DNA of 64,000 nucleotides. Source: Candidatus Iainarchaeum sp. Its GTDB lineage: Archaea > Iainarchaeota > Iainarchaeia > Iainarchaeales > JAFCCJ01. The stretch covers positions 3,548 to 67,547 of the forward strand of contig JBDRHK010000015.1 of NCBI GenBank assembly GCA_043816965.1. The letters are read 5' to 3'. Under the pieces are notes generated by a model. The model did not search any database, had not been told where the DNA came from, and was given only the letters and a program-made list of their open reading frames with translations. Positions 5,981-43,560 of the stretch are shown one piece after another (within the stretch, counting starts at the first letter, position 1; each line of letters opens with the position of its first letter). Made by a program: the position numbers and the translations under genes.

Positions 5981-6488
5981 GAGTTACCACTATTCCGGCA
6001 TAATTATCCATATTGTCTATTTTTAATCCGCCTGAGCAGTTAACACTGCTACTATCTAATAATAAGTCAAACACCTTGGCACATTTTTCATTATCCCCAT
6101 CAATGTCATTAATGCAGGCAGACGGGGCCGAGTAAGCATTCAATAAAATCCCGTCCAGCGCAACCTGGAAGCAGATCCCATTCACGCAAGTTGCGCCAAT
6201 ATCGCTTAACTGGCAGGTTAGGATGGTGTTCCCAGGCACAAAAAGAGTAATGGTCCTTTTATTTTCCCCGGGAGCAACGCTCACAGCATCAATGGTATTT
6301 GCAAGCTTTTCCGCGGCAAATCTCGCCTGGCCAATCCTTGCGGTTTCCTTGCCGCTTGCGGCGGCAATTGTAAGCGAAGGGTTAACGACAGTCTGAATGA
6401 ACAGGGCAATAATCATCACAAGCATAATTATTTCAATAGAGGCCTGACCCCGCCTGCCTAAATTTTGAAAAAAGGAAATAGAACCCAT
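5934..6488 (-). CDS. pilin-like protein (class III signal peptide)
   Basis: Leader ...GRRGQASIEIIMLVMIIALF. Confidence 0.55.
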   Translation of the reverse strand: MGSISFFQNLGRRGQASIEIIMLVMIIALFIQTVVNPSLTIAAASGKETARIGQARFAAEKLANTIDAVSVAPGENKRTITLFVPGNTILTCQLSDIGATCVNGICFQVALDGILLNAYSAPSACINDIDGDNEKCAKVFDLLLDSSSVNCSGGLKIDNMDNYAGIVVTLEVEKDGSTTTVKLA

Positions 6489-7669
6489 AAAACATCCCCT
6501 ATCAATTGAAGCAACAAATAACCAATCAATATTCCTGGCACAAATGCTGTTGTTCCCTTCACCTCTATCTTTTTCGGAATTAAGCCCTTATTCGCAAGTT
6601 CCTTAATCTCTTTTAATTGCTCCCCTGTAAGGCCGCCGGCGCTTGAGGAACTTGCAACAACCCTTGCCCCTGGCTTAATCGCCTGGTTAAGGGCATCCAA
6701 ATTATTATCCATTAACTGCTTTATAAGTGTTCCTATAGAGGCCCCTTCCAGAATCTCTATTTTTCCGCCCTTTTCAACAATGGTTTTTAGCGGAATCTCC
6801 CCCTCCTCCAGGTCCCTGACATCTTTCTCCATTCCCAAAAGCCTTGCCAATGCCTTTTTTGGCCTGTGGTGCACAACAATTTCAATTGTGAGAGTAATGG
6901 TGAGAATGATAACAAAAACTACGGCAAAACTAAATATTGCGCTTGGCACAGAAAGGTAGAGCGCGAAGGCCAACAGAATGGCCGCAAGGAATTTCTGCAG
7001 GAGATAGCTTATTTTTTTAAGCCCAAGCAAGCCAATCACTGTAACAATTGGCAGATGGAATATTTCAGGAACTCCCAGGAAAATAAGAAGGGTTGCTGTC
7101 CCAACAATCGCCGCAGTTGTTATAACAATGCCGTTAATTTTTCTTTTCACCAATGCAACAACAACCCCCTTCAAATTCATTTTCTTTATCATTTCCCTTC
7201 TATCAATCATGCGCTTTAATGTTATTGCAGTCACCCATGGGACCATTGAAATAATGCTGAAAACGAAAAGCGAAAAAGGGAAGATTGGCTCTGAAACAGA
7301 CGCAAAATTAAAAGTAATGCCGAGAAGTGAAAGGCTTTCTAAACCAATTAAATCCCTGAGGACACCATGGTTTACTGTGTTGATTGTGGCAAGCCCTGTC
7401 ATCAGCTTAACATCGCCCCCCGCCCATCCCCCTGCCTTGTAAAGGAGCAATGAGCCAACGGCGGTGGCGAAGGTTACGGCGCCGGTTACAATGATTATTG
7501 AAGGGTCATTCGCAAGCAGGGACCTGATTCCCTGCAGAATCAGCCCGCCAAAAATAAGTGAAAATGTGAGTTTATTGGAAACAATCCTTTCCCGTAAATC
7601 GGTAAATGTGGCGATAATAAGGGCGATTATTGAAATTATGAAGAAGAAAATAGGAAAGCTGATAGGCAT
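6458..7669 (-). CDS. archaeal type IV prepilin peptidase (A24 family, PibD/FlaK/EppA-like) with C-terminal soluble extension
   Basis: Polytopic protein with the two catalytic Asp motifs, TDLRERIV near the N-terminus and GGWAGGDVKL. Adjacent to pilins and the assembly ATPase. Confidence 0.78.
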   Translation of the reverse strand: MPISFPIFFFIISIIALIIATFTDLRERIVSNKLTFSLIFGGLILQGIRSLLANDPSIIIVTGAVTFATAVGSLLLYKAGGWAGGDVKLMTGLATINTVNHGVLRDLIGLESLSLLGITFNFASVSEPIFPFSLFVFSIISMVPWVTAITLKRMIDRREMIKKMNLKGVVVALVKRKINGIVITTAAIVGTATLLIFLGVPEIFHLPIVTVIGLLGLKKISYLLQKFLAAILLAFALYLSVPSAIFSFAVVFVIILTITLTIEIVVHHRPKKALARLLGMEKDVRDLEEGEIPLKTIVEKGGKIEILEGASIGTLIKQLMDNNLDALNQAIKPGARVVASSSSAGGLTGEQLKEIKELANKGLIPKKIEVKGTTAFVPGILIGYLLLQLIGDVLWVLFPFFKI

Positions 7670-7860: not shown

Positions 7861-8193
7861 TTAGCAATCTGTAAGTGCGGGAAGTGGTGTAGCATATTCT
7901 TTTGCAGAACAAACCTTATCTATAGTGTCCCAACAGCAACCAGCAGCGTAGTCTGCATTAGCAGGTGCGAAATCACCCAAAGCTTTGTCTGTTGCGTCAC
8001 CCAAACAGCCAGTGCCGCCTACAGCTCCCATAGTACCGCCATAAGTATTCAAACAGCTTACTTTCGCAGCACTAATTCTTGCCGGTTTGTCGTCACTTAT
8101 GGTTGTCAGCAATACTATAACCACCACAGCAACAAGCACAGCACCGCCAATCAGCAGCAGATACTCAAGTGCACCTTGTCCTTTTCTATCCAT
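7861..8193 (-). CDS. pilin with cysteine-rich C-terminal domain
   Basis: MDRKGQGALEYLLLIGGAVLVAVVV (class III leader). The mature part has 6 Cys (SCLNTYGG...GCLG...GCCW...VCSAKEY...TDC). A GGAGGA Shine-Dalgarno-like element and a TATA box lie upstream. Confidence 0.65.
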   Translation of the reverse strand: MDRKGQGALEYLLLIGGAVLVAVVVIVLLTTISDDKPARISAAKVSCLNTYGGTMGAVGGTGCLGDATDKALGDFAPANADYAAGCCWDTIDKVCSAKEYATPLPALTDC

Positions 8194-8278: not shown

Positions 8279-8443
8279 TTATCCAGTACTTTCCTCAAGC
8301 GCTTCGCCTGAAGTATCCTGGAGCTCCCGGCCAAGTGTTTTTAGATAAAAACCAACTGCCGCTGCAACTGCCAGAACCCCCCCTAAAATAAGGAGCATTT
8401 CAAGCGAACTTTGCGCCCTTTCCTCAAAAATCAATCCTTTCAT
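8279..8443 (-). CDS. small Flp-like pilin (54 aa), not in the ORF track
   Basis: Manual translation: MKGLIFEERAQSSLEMLLILGGVLAVAAAVGFYLKTLGRELQDTSGEALEESTG. Its start ATG overlaps the TadC-like stop (ATGA). Confidence 0.6.
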   Translation of the reverse strand: MKGLIFEERAQSSLEMLLILGGVLAVAAAVGFYLKTLGRELQDTSGEALEESTG

Positions 8444-9414
8444 GAAATACCACCCATTATTGACCTTGAACCAAACAATACAACTGTAAAGCAGATGTAT
8501 GCCACTAATAAGAGGAGTGGGAAGTATATAATACTTTTGCTCATCTTTCCATCTCTCATAAGTGAAATCATTATGCTTGCCGCAAGGGTTTCTATAAGAA
8601 CATATATCTGGATAAGCAGGGTTATGTCCTCCCTTGCCTTATCAGCAGCTTTGATTGCGGCATCATCTGCAACACCCTGGGCCGCAAGTATTAGGAAGCT
8701 TACAACAGTTGAAATAAAACCAAAGATTGCGGGAGCAACCAATGAGCCTGCAGTTACTAAGAAGATTACCTGCAGGCCTGTTTTTGACCTTCTTTCCTTG
8801 TTTATTCTATGTGTGGATCTGACATCTTCCGCAATCTGCTCAAGGATATCTGCCAATCCAGCACCTGCCTTGACAGAGTCAACAATTATTGTGACAGTTC
8901 TCTGTATAAGCCTTGAATCAATCTTGGAAAGAACTTTCAGCGAATTCTCGAAGTTTTCCCCCTCCTCAAGCTTCCTCAGGACATAGCCCATCTCCATTTT
9001 CAGTGCCCCATATTCGGATGCGGCAACTTCCCTCAGGGCATATTCATATGTTCCCCCGGCCCTCAATGTGTCGGCCATCTGCCTCAGCGCATCAGGCAGG
9101 GTTTCCTCAATTTCATCAATCCTTTTAAGTGCGTTCAGCAGGGGAAAGCCGATTGTAAGGTCAATGGCAACTATAAAAACTACTAATGGCAGGCCAGCCA
9201 GAACGCTCGTAAGAGAATCCATTTCAAGATAGTTTATCAGGGCATCAGAACCTGCCCAGGAACCGACAACAAGAAAAATCGACAAAAAAATGGAAAACAA
9301 AATCCAAAGGAAAGGGTCAAACCTGAATCCGCTCCATGCAAGCATTTTTGAGTAATATTTCAAAAAGCCTATGCTGTTCAGGACAGGAATCCTTTCCATC
9401 AGTCTCAATGCCAT
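8440..9414 (-). CDS. pilus assembly membrane protein with T2SS-F domain (TadC/FlaJ-like)
   Basis: Single T2SSF-type domain (LRQMADTLRAGGTYEYALREVAASEYGALKMEMGYVLRKLEEGENF) flanked by TM helices. Confidence 0.75.
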   Translation of the reverse strand: MALRLMERIPVLNSIGFLKYYSKMLAWSGFRFDPFLWILFSIFLSIFLVVGSWAGSDALINYLEMDSLTSVLAGLPLVVFIVAIDLTIGFPLLNALKRIDEIEETLPDALRQMADTLRAGGTYEYALREVAASEYGALKMEMGYVLRKLEEGENFENSLKVLSKIDSRLIQRTVTIIVDSVKAGAGLADILEQIAEDVRSTHRINKERRSKTGLQVIFLVTAGSLVAPAIFGFISTVVSFLILAAQGVADDAAIKAADKAREDITLLIQIYVLIETLAASIMISLMRDGKMSKSIIYFPLLLLVAYICFTVVLFGSRSIMGGIS

Positions 9415-9418
9415 AACA

Positions 9419-10570
9419 TCACACCGTCGGTTGCGCTATTTTTAGGTAATAAACAAGTAAAATCATTATCCCTGGCATAAGCACCAGGTAGAATATTCCC
9501 ATCATTGTGGGGTTAAGCCCAAGGCCGCCAACATTCGGCAGTGGGGAGTTTGTTATTCCCCCAATAACGGCAACAAACACAGGAATAACAATTGCCATAA
9601 AGATAAATATCACCCCGAAGAAATTCATCTTCTCCCCGAAATCCCTCATCGCAATCCTGAGCTCAAAAGAAACATCCTCGGCAATCTTGTTCATTATGTC
9701 CGAGAGGTTTCCCCCTGTCTTAAGCGCACGTATTATGTGGAGCAATGCGCTTCTTAAGGATTTGGATTCTGTCCTCAGTGCAAAGTGCCTTAGGGCAACT
9801 TTAGTGTCTGTTCCCTCCTCAACCTCGGAAATGGTCCTTGAAAATTCCTCTGAAAGGACGCCATAATCAGAAACAGCGATTGCCTGCAGTGTTTTGTAAA
9901 GCCCTATTCCTGCCTTTAATTCTGTTGACATATGCCTGAGGGCAAAGGGAAGCTCAACACTGATTTCCTTACCCCTCTTCATTGCCTTACTTTTTGGGTT
10001 GAGGAAGCAGATAATGGCTGCAAATAGGAACACAAAAATTGCAATAATCGGCGAAAGCAGCAAAATTAAGTTGTTGTCAAGGAACCAGCCAAGTCCTGCA
10101 AACAAAAGCAGCACAAAGAATGCAGCAATCACTGAAACAGAGGTTGAAATCGCAAGATATTGCTGGATGCTGTATTTCATGTTTGCGCTGTAAAGGTAAT
10201 AGCCTAACTCCCCCGCCCCCGGCATTCTTCTCAGAATCTTTGAAATGAACTTTAAGGGAAGCTCAAACAAAAGATAAACCCTGCCCAAGCTCCTGATTGT
10301 GGGGGAACTGAATTCAGTTAAATCCTCAATTCCCTGCACCCTTATTTTTGACAGCTGGCTTTCGGCAATTATTCCCCGCAGTTCGCTTAATCTGCCGCCA
10401 ACTTCCTCAAATTCAACTCCCTGATCCCGATATTTTTTTTTCATCCTGGTTACAATCTTGTCCACCGCATCAAGGTCGATTGATTCCTCATCCTTTTCAA
10501 TCGCGCCGAACTTTTTGGCCGTTTTCTTTTTTTCTTCAACCTGTTTTCTCAGATCATCAAGTTCAGGCAT
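9419..10570 (-). CDS. pilus assembly membrane protein with T2SS-F domain (TadB/FlaJ-like)
   Basis: T2SSF-type domain ([43 protein letters not shown]...[13 protein letters not shown]) with TM helices. A separate gene from the TadC-like one. Confidence 0.75.
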
Positions 10571-13500
10571 ATTCTCCCCTCTTCTTTAGCAGGTGGTCCT
10601 GGCAGGCTTTTGATACCTCTTCTATAGACCTTATCTTCTTGTCAACAAGGCTCTTAAGAAACCTTTCCCTGTCCTTAAGTTCGGCATCAATCTGCTTTTT
10701 TGACAGTCCGGTGTATTTTTCAAGTGTCCTGAGGTATGCGCTGGAGAAATTGGACCGAATGAGTTGATCAGTTATTGCATCCCTTTCGAAAAGGGTTTGG
10801 GTTGTTGATTTGCCCTCCAAGACCCCGCCAACCTCCGCCATCTCGGTAATTCTTCTAATGGTGCCTTTTTTCCTGTCATGAAGCCTGTGTTCTATAAGCA
10901 CGAAATCAAGCCCTGAAAGCATCATCTTAGGGACATTCATCGGAGGGCTTGTGACCCTTACTAGTGCCTCTTGGGGAGAGTTTGCGTGGACAGTCCCCAT
11001 GCAATTTGAAACAAACAAGCCATTGGCAATGTAATTGTGGTTATCTTTAACAGTCAGGTCGTAAACATATCCCTCGAATTCCCGGTCCTTCACTTCAACT
11101 ATTTCCTCGAACCTGAAATCAGATTCAACTAATTTTAAAAGTTCCTTTCCAATGGAATTTTCGGAAGTTATCATTGCAATTTTTTCCAGTTGCCCTCTCG
11201 ACGGATTTCTTTGGTTAGTTTCGTATGCCTCAATCGTTGACCTTGTTTTTGCATTCATAAAAGATGCCAATTCTGTTTGCGTTAAGTAACAATCGCTCCT
11301 CGCCCTTTTGATTAAACCGGAAATTTTCGGGAACAAATCCATCGAATTTTTTGAAACTTTCAATAGTCCTGCTAGTTTTTGCCTTTTTGCAGAATGCCTG
11401 AAGCCGATTTTCCCCTGGTATTTTTCAAGGTTATCCTTACCATAAATTGAAATTCTGTAGTAAGGGCCAATATTTCCTTTGCCGTCTTTTTCCTGAATAT
11501 TTGTTGAGGAGTGAATCCCGAATCTCTGGAGAATCATCGGAAGTTTTTTTGCCAGGTCGGGGTTTGATGTTGAGAATTGGATTGAGTTTGAATGCAGATT
11601 CACATGGGCCTCAGCATCGAAAAACCCGCATAATAATTCCCCGATATTTGACTCACTTGAACTTAAAGCCTTTTTCGTTATTTTGAATTTTTTTGTTTTA
11701 TTCCCTAGAGGAATATCATACTCCTCTTCAAAAAGTTTAACCAATTTTTTGTCAAAAACATTTACTCTGGAATAGTTTCCATAGTTTTTGACCGATACCT
11801 TGTTTTTGGTGGTTTTTCCAATCCCGTCCGCAAAATTTTCAATGACTGATTTTTCGTTGTTCACAAACTGAATCCCTTCGCTGTGAATGTGCCCATCTCC
11901 ATAAATCAATCCTGCCAAGTAGGGATGTTTTATTTTTTCCGTGGCACTAATCGTGATTGCCTTTGGAAATGCAATGAAATCCCCCCCCTTTGCCTCTTCA
12001 GAATTTATTTCCTGAATGCCATTATGTATCCTGTAAATCGGATGGTCTTTTGTCAAACAAATGCGTTTTCCTGAGCGGGTTTTTATTATTTTCATCATTT
12101 CTTTTGTTTTCTTCTTCCAGACCCGCGTAATTGGCCTGTTTTCAATTTTCAATGTCTTTTTGTTAAAGCTTGGGACAAGCAGTTCTTCACTTAATTCAAC
12201 AAATTTAAATTCTCCGTCGCTTATTGGACATGTTTCATTAAATTGCCTTTCAACAAAATCCCCAATTGCCTCAATATTCCCGTCTGAAAACTGAATTAAT
12301 GTTTCTCCATTTAATGCGCCTTCATGGCCGGTATTCATGGCGGTAAAAAGCGAGAATGCCTCATCATGCCTTATCTCACCAACTATAATTCTGTCAGGCC
12401 TCATCCTGAGGGAATTTTTAGTCAAAATATCCATTGTTATTTCCCCAGTTCCCTCCATTCCCGGGGGCCTTGATTCAAGCCTTATCCAGTGTTTTAAGGG
12501 AAGGTTCAGTTCTGCAGTGTCCTCAATTGAAACAATCCTTTCAGAAGCAGGAATAAATGAGGCAAGAACATTCAAAGTTGTTGTTTTCCCTGAACCGGTT
12601 CCTCCCGCAATCAGAATGTTTGCGGGCTTTACCCTCAATCCCTCAACACAAAGCCAGAGGAATGCAGCGGTTTCAAGGTTTACTGTATTGAGGTTCAGCA
12701 AATCAACTATTGACAACGGGTCTTCCCTGAATTTCCTTATAGTGAGGGTTGCACCACTTACAGATATGGGGGGGATGGTCGCATTAACCCTGCTCCCATC
12801 AGGGAGTCTTGCATCCAGCAAGGGGGCGGAAATATCAACCCTTCTTCCCACCTGCCTTCCTATCCTGTTTACGAGGTCCTCTATCTCGGACTCGGAAAAG
12901 AATTCAATATTGGTTTTCATCATTTCATATTCCCTGTGGAAAACATAAACCGGGCGTTTTGCGCCAATAACCATAATTTCCTCAAGCCTGTCATCCTTTA
13001 TCAGGGAATCAATAAGCCCATATCCGACCATCTCCCTCACAACAGCATCTGCATAAAACTCAAATCTTCTAGTTGGAATCCTTAACTCTTTCGAGGTCTG
13101 CAGGATTTCCATTATTTTCTGCTGGTAAACACTTCTCCTCTCTTCAGGGTCACGGATTTTGTAGGGGATTATGCTGATTATTCTTGTTGCAGCTTCCTTT
13201 ATTGTGTTGATTATTGTTTTATCCCCCTTCGTCGGCCTTGGCACAGGGGTATAGTAGTACATCAGGGGTTGGCCAGGAATTTCATATATTGTCGTATTTC
13301 CGTAAGATGCAACCTTAATTTTCTTTACATTTTCCATCTCCTTTTCGATTGTTGATTTATCCGGTTCTTCCTCTCCTTCTTTGGCGGGAATTCCCTCCAC
13401 CGAGGCAGGCCCCTTAGGCACTTCAGGGGATTTTCTCCTCTCAAAAATGTTCATAATCCCCTCCTTCCTGCTCTCAATTTCAGGAGTCTCCTCTTTTACC

Positions 13501-13682
13501 GGGGCAGCCACTGGCTCTTGGCGGGCCAAAAATTCATCTGCAGAAGGACCATTGGCTATAGGTTGCGAAGTTGCAGGGCCAGTTTCTATAGTAGACCCCT
13601 CTACCTTAATCCCCTTTTTTTCCTTTGCCTTTCTAATCAGATCATCCAAAGGGTTAGACATATATATCCCATTAATCAACAA
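10563..13682 (-). CDS. type IV pilus assembly ATPase (TadA/CpaF/FlaI family, GspE-like), intein-containing
   Basis: Walker [10 protein letters not shown], Asp box, His box AMNTGHEG. A 438-aa intein follows, then CMGTVHANS resumes host sequence. The N-terminal region is a low-complexity linker. Confidence 0.85.
11004..12317 (-). mobile_element. intein with LAGLIDADG homing endonuclease domain, inserted at TGHEG|C of the pilus ATPase
   Basis: Residues 456-893 of the ATPase. Block [14 protein letters not shown], block [19 protein letters not shown] motifs [11 protein letters not shown] and [11 protein letters not shown], block [25 protein letters not shown], +1 Cys. Coordinates checked codon by codon. 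Confidence 0.8.
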
Positions 13683-13827
13683 CGTTTCTTTTATTTAATG
13701 GTTTTGGCACGGCTATTTCCCTCCGGGAACTTGCACCCTTCCGGGCACAAGCGAGCTCCGTGCACACGGCGGCTCCCTACGGGGAACCTTGTTCGCTGCG
13801 TTCGCCAATTTGAATTATAAAATCAGC

Positions 13828-41100: not shown

Positions 41101-42363
41101 ATGGGTATTAAAGGACTTGATTGTAAAACAGAATATCATTGGTTTGATGAGCCAGATACTGTAAGAGTTAGATTAGAAAAAGAGCTCTGGGAAATATTTA
41201 TAAATAAGGCAATTGCGAAGGCAGGCTCAAGAACCAGATTAGCAAATGCAACTGGACTATGCAAGGTAACTGTTTTCAATTATTTCCACAATATAAGTTT
41301 GACCGTAGGAGGGGTAAAGAAAATTCTTAATTTTTTAAACATTGATTACATGTCGGTTGAAGATAAAGTTAGGGAAATTGCTTGGACTAAAAACATTAAA
41401 TTGCCAATAAAACTTAATACGCCATCTATGGCTACTATTTTAGCAGCAGTAATTGGAGATGGAACTATTAGTGAAGTGCACGTAGAATATAAAAACAAGG
41501 ATAGTGAGCTACTGAATAAAGTCGAGAAAGAAATAAAAAAGACTTTTGGAAATGTTAAAATAGATCATAGAATTTCTGAGAAGGGCATTCCTTATATAGT
41601 TGCTAACAAAATTGTTAAAAGAGTTTTAATAAACGTTGGAGTGCCCGTTGGCAAAAAATTAAATAAAAATTCTGGAGTTCCAAAGATTATTGTGAATGGT
41701 TCAAAAAGAATGCAAAAAGCATTTATTCAGCAATTATTTGATGATGAAGGTTGGGTTGAAAACACCAATTATAAAATTGGATTATCGCAAGCCAATGAGT
41801 GTACTAATGCAATTAACAAAAAATTTTTTTCTGGAATGAAAATAAACAAGCCCTACAGCATAAATAAAATCCCCGAAGAAAATCGAAATAATGTTTTGCC
41901 TCCTCAACTCTTAACAGGCATAAGAAAAATCCTACATGAAAAATTTTTAGTCGAGTCCAATCTAAGGCTAAAAAGAATAATAAGGCGGAGAAAAGGATAT
42001 GTTACTGCATTCTGGGAACTTAATGTGGGCAAGAAAGAATCATTATTAAACTTCAAAAATAGAATTGGATTTTATTGCAAGAGAAAAAGAAAAGACTTTG
42101 ATTTAATGGTTGGATTAAGAGAAAGCATGGTTCCAAAAGACATTCTAAGTCAAATATTTTACGAAGGAGCGAATCTTTCGAAGGAAAATGGGAGGTTTAA
42201 AGTTAAGGAAATATCCAAAAAGGTAAATCTCCACCCGTCCCGTATCAGGAAGAGGCTACAGACTCTCGTAAAAAGAGGTGTTTTTTATAAGAAAAATGGC
42301 GACTATGGCCTAAATCATAGTTATTTAATTAAAACCTTTTTTAACTCAACTAATAGGGGTTTA
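41101..42363 (+). CDS. HTH-LAGLIDADG homing endonuclease-like ORF, in frame with the downstream GTPase (no stop between)
   Basis: Motifs ILAAVIGDGTIS and FIQQLFDDEGWV. Shares the WTKNIKLPIKL / HTKGAKRAVPLAL block and HTH region with the HEN at 54451..55527. Confidence 0.55.
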
Positions 42364-43560
42364 ATGCAAATAGGTTGTGTGGGTAAACCATCGAGTGGTA
42401 AGAGCACGTTTTTCAGTGCTGCAACACTTACTGATGTTGAAATTGATATGCGGCCATTCACAACTATCAAAGCTAATATTGGAACAGGATATATAACGAC
42501 AAAATGCGTGCATGGGGAATTTGGCAAACAGTGCCAACCCCAGAATAGTAAATGCGTAAATGGCATTAGACTCATACCAATTCAACTTTTAGATGTTGCA
42601 GGGCTAATTGAAGGTAGCTGGCAAGGTAAAGGACTTGGAAATTCTTTCATGTCGGATTTAATGCAAGCAAGTGCTTTAATCCATGTTTTGGATGTTGCCG
42701 GAATAACAGATGCGCAGGGCAATGTCTGTGGTTCAGGAACGCATGATCCGGCAGTTGACATTAAGTTTCTCGAGAGGGAGATTTCATATTGGATAAAAAG
42801 CATTTTAACAAAAAACTGGGCTAAAATAAGTAAACAATCCGGATTGAATGAGAAGGGTCCTGGAGTAGCATTGGCAAAACAGTTGAGCGGATTGGGAATA
42901 AGTGAAGATTGTGTGAATGATGTTTTGAAAGAAGGCAATTTCAGTGATAAGCCATATTCATGGAACGAAGAAGAAATTTTGAGATTTAGCGGGCTGGTTA
43001 GGGATAAAAGCAAACCTTTGTTGATTGCTGCCAATAAGATAGATCTTGCTGGGGCGCGAGAAAAATATGAAAAAATAAAGAAAGAATTTCCAAATTATAA
43101 GATTTTTCCAACTTCCGGAGCGGCAGAGCTTGCATTAAGAAAAGCAGAGAGAAATGGGATAATAAAGTATGTTCCAGGTGAAGATAAGTTCGAGATTGTA
43201 AAAGGAGATATTGATGAAAAGCAAAGGAAAGGATTAGATTTTATTCAGAAAAATATCCTTGATAAATATGGTTCGACCGGGATACAGAACGTGTTAAATA
43301 AAACAGCATTTGAACTTTTGGATTTGATAGTAGTTTATCCTGTTGAGGACCAGAATAAGTGGACAAGTGGGCAGGGAAATATTCTCCCAGATGCTTATTT
43401 GTTGAAGAGAGGAAGTACTCCAAAAGATTTATCTGGCAAAATTCACAGTGATTTTATTGATAAGTATATTGGGTCAATAAATTGCAAAACAGGCCAAAAG
43501 ATTTCTGAAAATTATAAACTGCAAAACAACGATGTTATCAAAATTATGCTCTCTCACTAA
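42364..43560 (+). CDS. Obg-family GTPase (YchF/Ygr210-like) with C-terminal TGS domain
   Basis: G1 MQIGCVGKPSSGKSTFFSAAT, G3 DVAGL, NKID G4 (ANKIDL), C-terminal TGS. 399 aa is full length for the family. Confidence 0.85.
   Translation: MQIGCVGKPSSGKSTFFSAATLTDVEIDMRPFTTIKANIGTGYITTKCVHGEFGKQCQPQNSKCVNGIRLIPIQLLDVAGLIEGSWQGKGLGNSFMSDLMQASALIHVLDVAGITDAQGNVCGSGTHDPAVDIKFLEREISYWIKSILTKNWAKISKQSGLNEKGPGVALAKQLSGLGISEDCVNDVLKEGNFSDKPYSWNEEEILRFSGLVRDKSKPLLIAANKIDLAGAREKYEKIKKEFPNYKIFPTSGAAELALRKAERNGIIKYVPGEDKFEIVKGDIDEKQRKGLDFIQKNILDKYGSTGIQNVLNKTAFELLDLIVVYPVEDQNKWTSGQGNILPDAYLLKRGSTPKDLSGKIHSDFIDKYIGSINCKTGQKISENYKLQNNDVIKIMLSH

Follow-up and report, generated by a model that had tools for sequence, protein, structure and literature searches.

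A stretch of 64,000 nucleotides from Candidatus Iainarchaeum sp. (GenBank assembly GCA_043816965.1, contig JBDRHK010000015.1, positions 3,548 to 67,547; hereafter the window, in whose numbering all positions are given) encodes a CpaF/TadA/KlbA-like type IV pilus ATPase whose gene is interrupted by an intein of 438 residues. Its sequence features indicate that this is very probably a KlbA (class 2) allele, inserted in the His box of the pilus ATPase of a DPANN host. Since the host protein is itself a KlbA homologue, the intein would be an allele of the class 2 prototype and not a mere look-alike. The host gene, the two exteins and the parts of the intein are listed here.

10563..13661, minus strand: host gene, CpaF/TadA/KlbA-like type IV pilus ATPase precursor, 1032 residues plus stop (Pfam T2SSE, E 5.5e-40)
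12318..13661, minus strand: N-extein, 448 residues, containing Walker A (GGTGSGKTT) and Walker B
11004..12317, minus strand: intein, 438 residues, from Ala1 to Ser437-Asn438 (residues 456-893 of the open reading frame, ORF)
12315..12317, minus strand: Ala1 codon GCA (block A position 1), non-nucleophilic; Ala1 is invariant in 10 aligned full-length relatives
11943..12317, minus strand: N-terminal HINT splicing subdomain (residues 1-125), aligning to residues 1 to ~130 of the Mja KlbA intein; beta-rich in the AlphaFold2 model
12042..12053, minus strand: block B Thr89-Lys-Asp-His92 (Thr B:7, His B:10), invariant in both alignments of relatives
11352..11927, minus strand: LAGLIDADG homing-endonuclease domain (residues ~131-322; Pfam LAGLIDADG_3, E 2.4e-18)
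11886..11921, minus strand: LAGLIDADG motif 1 (LAGLIYGDG, Asp141), from the sequence
11601..11636, minus strand: LAGLIDADG motif 2 (LCGFFDAEA, Glu236), from the sequence
11175..11312, minus strand: HTH_3 (Cro/C1-like) domain, residues 336-381 (Pfam HTH_3, E 5.7e-06)
11004..11123, minus strand: C-terminal HINT subdomain (residues 399-438), with Asp420 (F:4) and Tyr429 (F:15) in block F, and block G NGLFVSN
11001..11003, minus strand: Cys+1 codon TGC, the C-extein's initial residue and the sole splice-junction nucleophile, from the sequence
10563..11003, minus strand: C-extein, 146 residues plus stop, starting with the second half of the His box

The insertion lies in frame at a conserved host site, where it splits the ATPase His box (NTGHEG / CMGTVHANS) directly after a Gly at position -1, and its removal leaves a contiguous host protein with an uninterrupted His box. 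No gap is needed to align the spliced junction with the Caulobacter CpaF His box, AMNTGHDGSMGTLHANS (AMNTGHDGSMGTLHANSP), and the junction is identical to that of the intein-free homologue P0010 (592 residues; 86% amino-acid identity). P0010 is encoded by the empty allele L001, whose DNA shares 85% identity with the spliced window gene and reads ...ACAGGCCATGAGGGA/TGTATGGGCACAGTCCAT... around the insertion point. The gap-free CpaF alignment and the identity of the junction with that of P0010 make the intein boundaries unambiguous. At its C-terminal end the intein has Ser437 followed by Asn438 (codon AAT, 11004-11006), and then Cys+1. Splicing blocks A, B, F and G are all present (Pfam Intein_splicing, E 1.4e-24, residues 9-438), and the sequence matches many inteins of solved structure. 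The initial annotation, made from the DNA alone, had placed an intein with Ala1, a Ser-Asn end and Cys+1 at these positions; it was correct to the base, and the strings that it quoted lie where computed. It had named Cys or Ser at position 1 together with a His-Asn terminus as grounds for withdrawal, and neither is found in the sequence. Its placement of the insertion in the P-loop NTPase core stands as to the ATPase and the two flanks, but the interrupted element is the His box, not the Walker A P-loop.

Class 2 inteins are the orthologues of the Mja KlbA intein with Ala1 and with Ser at block G position G:6, in which Cys+1 attacks the amide directly with the help of Thr B:7, His B:10 and Asp F:4 (PMC4031507, PMC2807308, PMC7765530). 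Thr B:7 and His B:10 activate the N-terminal scissile bond (PMC4031507, PMC2807308), and Tyr F:15 is important in the Mja KlbA intein (PMC2807308). The published description of class 2 covers five orthologues, all with Ala1 and Ser G:6 (PMC4031507, PMC2807308, PMC7765530), and the biochemical criterion is a branched intermediate that arises without a linear (thio)ester (Southworth et al. 2000, as cited in PMC4031507). The window intein has the defining Ala1 (PMC4031507, PMC7765530) and, in place of the penultimate His, Ser437 at G:6 (PMC4031507), followed by Asn438 at G:7 and the Cys+1 codon. Block B, which ends in CLTKDHPIY, supplies Thr B:7 and His B:10, and Asp420 is present at F:4. Ala1, Thr89 and His92 are invariant across relatives that are merely 44-56% identical overall; Asp420, His427, Tyr429 and Asn438 are invariant among the aligned relatives, and Ser437 is near-invariant, being found in nine of ten full-length relatives with Gly in the tenth.

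A mini version of the window intein with its native flanks was used as the query for a sequence search of solved structures, and the best match is the Mja KlbA intein (MJ0781; 2jmz/2jnq; phmmer E 2.4e-33 across the entire splicing domain). That intein is inserted in the same host family and at the same point (MNTGHDG, intein, C-G-T-h-H-A-N-S), which together with the homology identifies the two as orthologues. In the alignment, the window N-extein MNTGHEG pairs with MNTGHDG and the match continues through Ala1 (Mja start ALAYDEPIYLSDGNI), block B CLTKDHPIY pairs with TLTHDHPVY, and the Mja block F HIYDLTVEDNHTYIA is aligned with that of the window; both inteins end in VSN and are followed by the C-extein GT-H. 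Shared residues are Ala1, Ser G:6, Asn G:7, Cys+1, the T-x-x-H of block B and the YDLTV-DNH-YIA of block F with its Asp F:4 and Tyr F:15. The initial annotation's suggestion of a class 2, KlbA-type intein lacking an N-terminal nucleophile is thereby upheld, with all of the signature residues in place. The two inteins differ in that Mja KlbA is a mini-intein of 168 residues from a hyperthermophile, whereas the window intein carries LAGLIDADG and helix-turn-helix (HTH) modules between its HINT halves and comes from a metagenome-assembled genome of the DPANN lineage Diapherotrites/Iainarchaeota. Their splicing domains have diverged, the Foldseek alignment giving about 39% identity.

Full-length KlbA inteins of Thermococcales and Methanococcales (P0133, P0137, P0125 and L018, the last from Methanothermococcus sp. 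Ax23) have the same site and the same Ala1, Ser-Asn and Cys+1, but their host lineages are different. P0125 and L018 share the LAGLIDADG-plus-HTH architecture of the window intein, to which they are 42-48% identical, whereas in the Thermococcales-type P0133 and P0137 (about 520 residues) the endonuclease region is larger and more divergent. The Pyrococcus KlbA inteins listed in InBase also belong to this full-length group.

An AlphaFold2 model of the window intein, built on ten homologues, has a mean predicted local distance difference test (pLDDT) score of 91.5 and a predicted template-modelling (pTM) score of 0.89. Foldseek comparison matched the model to the TliVMA intein (template-modelling, TM, score 0.79; E 1e-28), to PI-PfuI (TM 0.74) and to PI-PkoII—TM scores of 0.70-0.79 and E down to 1e-28 for the three—and its subdomains to I-DmoI and the nuclear magnetic resonance structure of Mja KlbA. 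PI-PfuI, TliVMA and PI-PkoII have the same overall fold in three parts (HINT, LAGLIDADG with two motifs, and a helical module), but they are class 1 inteins, with Cys1 or Ser1 and a penultimate His, that reside in ribonucleotide reductase, V-ATPase and DNA polymerase and are 14-20% identical to the window intein. The full LAGLIDADG domain reported in the initial annotation is confirmed: both motifs are recognisable, each helix has its catalytic acidic residue (Asp141 and Glu236), and the pseudo-dimeric alpha-beta-beta-alpha-beta-beta-alpha fold is present. The HTH_3 module, presumed to be an extra DNA-binding module, follows the endonuclease and precedes the C-terminal splicing subdomain (modelled helices 333-397), and an HTH domain is kept in some mini-inteins that have no endonuclease (e.g., P0132). 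Conservation was assessed with ten full-length alleles 44-56% identical to the window intein, in all of which GDGH140-143, Asp234, Glu236, His238, a GNKTK motif and some 60 other positions of the endonuclease are invariant. The invariance of splice-site and endonuclease residues indicates purifying selection on both activities, and the endonuclease of the window intein is apparently intact.

The splicing pathway that we propose (attack by Cys+1, cyclisation of Asn438 and the S-to-N shift) is modelled on the homologous and experimentally studied Mja KlbA intein. Translation would give a 1032-residue ATPase precursor with a split His box, presumably inactive. With Ala at position 1 there would be no N-S acyl shift; by analogy, we infer that the Cys+1 thiol attacks the amide of the Gly(-1)-Ala1 bond directly, this bond being activated by Thr89 (B:7), His92 (B:10) and Asp420 (F:4), and that the product would be the block G branched thioester. 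Asn438 would cyclise with Ser437 in place of the penultimate His, releasing the intein, and an S-to-N acyl shift would yield the mature 594-residue ATPase with GHEG joined to CMGT. The free intein would be a two-motif LAGLIDADG endonuclease with an HTH module, probably active as judged from its conservation, and would be expected to cleave empty alleles across the point of insertion, at about ...GGCCATGAAGGC/TGCATGGGGACT..., with repair then copying the intein in. Such homing would explain the patchy distribution of the intein among closely related hosts.

The host gene is the first gene of a Tad-like pilus operon, which is intact around it and includes the following genes in addition to the ATPase.

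9419..10570, minus strand: T2SSF (TadB/C-like) membrane platform protein (Pfam T2SSF, E 5e-20)
8440..9414, minus strand: second T2SSF protein (Pfam T2SSF, E 1.3e-15)
7861..8193, minus strand: pilin with a class III signal peptide (Pfam Class_IIIsignal, E 7.9e-08)
6458..7669, minus strand: archaeal prepilin peptidase (A24 plus Arc_PepC; Pfam)

The intein-free locus L001 has a gene arrangement that matches this operon. The ORF at 10563..13682 (minus strand) has 1039 residues when counted from an upstream TTG, but the start is most likely Met8 at 13661, judging from homologues and from the NCBI protein P0009 (1032 residues), which is 100% identical to the window protein. The public record of P0009, 'ATPase, T2SS/T4P/T4SS family [Candidatus Diapherotrites archaeon]', names the ATPase and not the intein; the 1032-residue "ATPase" is better read as a 594-residue pilus ATPase plus a KlbA intein. 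With the intein removed, the host protein matches CpaF (E 6e-78), Archaeoglobus GspE (3e-68) and FlaI (1e-62). No second ATPase copy was seen within the window, and tRNA and Rfam searches gave no match anywhere in it. Two long ORFs antisense to the ATPase gene, at 12337..12948 and 13381..13820 (both plus strand), are not backed by any protein family and are most likely spurious, mere shadows of the coding strand.

Inteins in archaeal pilus ATPases were regarded as uncommon in the initial annotation, and this view did not survive a broader search. Pfam Intein_splicing is found in 15 of the 120 nearest host homologues, although the very nearest (P0010/L001) is empty, and the remaining homologues of this set have 550-680 residues and Cys, Ser or Thr at the +1 position. 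An exhaustive HMMER search of 1.8 billion cluster representatives, from which the top hits were retrieved, gave further alleles of the site, including Methanococcales-like and Thermococcales-like ones, and a scan by sequence pattern, in which each GTDB species was represented by one genome, recovered this intein lineage in about 30 species, among them Iainarchaeota/Diapherotrites, Micrarchaeota, Methanocaldococcus and Methanothermococcus. The closest relative of the window intein in the GTDB scan is in archaeon GW2011_AR10 (CP010424.1; 68% intein identity), and the window and the 13 GTDB alleles checked all keep an intact reading frame. Pooling all searches (homologues, cluster representatives and GTDB scan) gave 54 distinct klbA-site inteins; endonuclease-less mini-inteins are common among them (e.g., P0004, P0006, P0131 and the Methanocaldococcus alleles). 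The pattern matches P0020, P0079 and P0100 were excluded as inteins, as they are tandem-duplicated ATPase domains. Host homologues of ~1020 residues (P0011-P0024, from Hydrothermarchaeota and others) are close in length to the intein-bearing precursor but have no intein; what they have is an additional domain at the N-terminus (PF23989) or a second ATPase-like His box, so that length alone is no guide to intein presence.

Ala is the first residue in 42 of the 54 inteins, and 40 of the 54 combine Ala1 with Ser-Asn and Cys+1. The +1 residue is Cys in all 47 clearly bounded alleles that begin with Ala, Met, Val or Arg and in the single Ser1 allele (L005), and it is Ser in all five Cys1 alleles (P0048, P0059, P0062, P0134 and P0136). 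Variants at position 1 are Met (P0005-P0008 and P0127), Val (P0128 and P0130), Arg (L027:~1427, codon AGA) and Ser (L005:2501, codon TCG), all of them with Ser-Asn and then Cys at the C-terminal junction; with Ala1 retained, G:6 is His in P0129 (…MIVHN/C) and Gly in P0057 (…IIAGN/C). L005 (JAFCBY010000013.1) encodes an archaeal Tad-like ATPase with a KlbA-type intein and is labelled 'Candidatus Falkowbacteria bacterium', but is probably a mis-binned DPANN contig. The Cys1/Ser+1 inteins occupy the same insertion point in the same host family as the window intein and are colinear with it (E 2e-36; 29% identity over 477 columns), sharing its order of HINT, LAGLIDADG, HTH and HINT; they differ in Cys1, Gly G:6 (...VGN), Ser+1 and a longer block F loop. 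P0172 also belongs to this lineage. This lineage looks, from its sequences, like a class 1 group at the klbA site, and it is separate from the clade lacking the nucleophile in a rough, midpoint-rooted neighbour-joining tree. Two KlbA-type ATPases, P0128 and P0136, have two inteins each, the additional one lying upstream in the IEDTAEL motif (IED/S...HN/TAEL), which indicates a second insertion site in this ATPase family.

Most inteins start with Cys or Ser, and the related allele L005 has Ser1 (TCG); the window intein could accordingly be a canonical class 1 intein in which a Cys or Ser codon appears as GCA (Ala1) through an error of sequencing or assembly. We give this next to no credence: the change from GCA to TGY needs two substitutions, the 42 alleles with Ala1 come from independent metagenomes and genomes and include the experimentally characterised Mja KlbA intein, and the co-occurrence of Ser G:6 with Cys+1 is the class 2 signature (PMC4031507). 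The lack of an N-terminal nucleophile is also a property of class 3 inteins, in which a block F cysteine attacks first and the branched intermediate is at block F. Membership of that class is extremely improbable, since its Trp/Cys/Thr (WCT) triplet is absent (with Ile, Asp420 and Val at B:12, F:4 and G:5), Cys and not Thr or Ser stands at +1, and the host is neither a helicase nor a terminase (criteria of PMC2807308). A decayed insertion that no longer splices, leaving either a dead ATPase gene or an intein that stays in the protein, would be in keeping with a non-nucleophilic residue 1 and a missing penultimate His, which would disable most inteins, and splicing of the window intein is a prediction. 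It is nonetheless quite unlikely: the frame is open over its 3.1 kb, the catalytic and structural residues of known importance in Mja KlbA (Thr B:7, His B:10, Asp F:4, Tyr F:15, Asn G:7 and Cys+1) are all conserved across the 44-56% identical relatives, the pilus operon is intact with no second ATPase copy in the window, and the exteins are still 86% identical to the intein-free homologue.

That the intein splices but has an inactive endonuclease, being fixed and vertically inherited and not homing, is an unlikely explanation that still deserves serious attention. It is favoured by the failure to find a copy of the intein more than 70% identical elsewhere, by the lack of a detected co-conversion signal and by the frequency of endonuclease-less mini-inteins at the klbA site; it is opposed by the invariance of both LAGLIDADG acidic residues and about 60 further positions in the ten full-length alleles, and by the patchy distribution among near relatives, with an empty site in the closest homologue. 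Several observations weigh against the reading of the window intein as a splicing and homing class 2 allele. Its splicing, its class 2 route and its endonuclease activity are all predicted from sequence and by analogy. LAGLIDADG motif 2 ends in Ala and not Gly, and activity is not readable from sequence alone. No co-conversion tract was seen beside the insertion point when 30-nucleotide extein bins were compared with L001 and with four intein-bearing alleles; identity to L001 is 80% in the two bins next to the junction, as against ~85% overall, a difference that is not significant. The guanine-plus-cytosine (GC) content of the intein is 37.1%, compared with 45.0% and 46.9% in the two exteins, which fits a foreign origin but is weak evidence: the intein is 5 points under the window mean, and 6% of windows of equal size are as low, so that the dip says little for a recent transfer. 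With its nearest intein relative merely 68% identical, the invasion is not demonstrably recent, and synonymous sites are saturated at this distance.

Another LAGLIDADG ORF is present in the window, at 41101..43560 (plus strand; 819 residues), in the stretch of lowest GC (0.32-0.33). Its N-terminal part of about 420 residues, with LAGLIDADG_3 (residues 205-323) and a winged HTH (residues 362-394), is joined, in the same frame, to a GTPase resembling Obg/YGR210, which has a G1 motif of its own starting at Met421 (MQIGCVGKPSSGKST). HINT splicing blocks are not evident in this ORF, and it therefore does not resemble a standard intein.

Read as a KlbA intein, the window element is one more full-length class 2 allele, here in a DPANN host, and holds no surprise for an intein specialist. 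Variation in the family, as judged from the sequences, goes beyond the published description of class 2, but it concerns the relatives, and the window allele is typical of the family. We suggest tentatively that the klbA-site class 2 lineage may far exceed its published description in both size and variability, with Ala, Met, Val, Arg or Ser at position 1, Ser, Gly or His at G:6, a colinear Cys1/Ser+1 lineage, and a +1 residue that co-varies with position 1. If so, the DPANN and methanogen alleles, including that of the window, would constitute a natural series of loss (perhaps also regain) of the N-terminal nucleophile, and would provide protein engineering with class 2 inteins whose hosts are likely mesophiles. 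Studies of class 2 splicing have, to our knowledge, been confined to hyperthermophile alleles, and an allele whose host is probably a mesophile could conveniently serve to test both the attack made directly by Cys+1 and homing at the klbA site.

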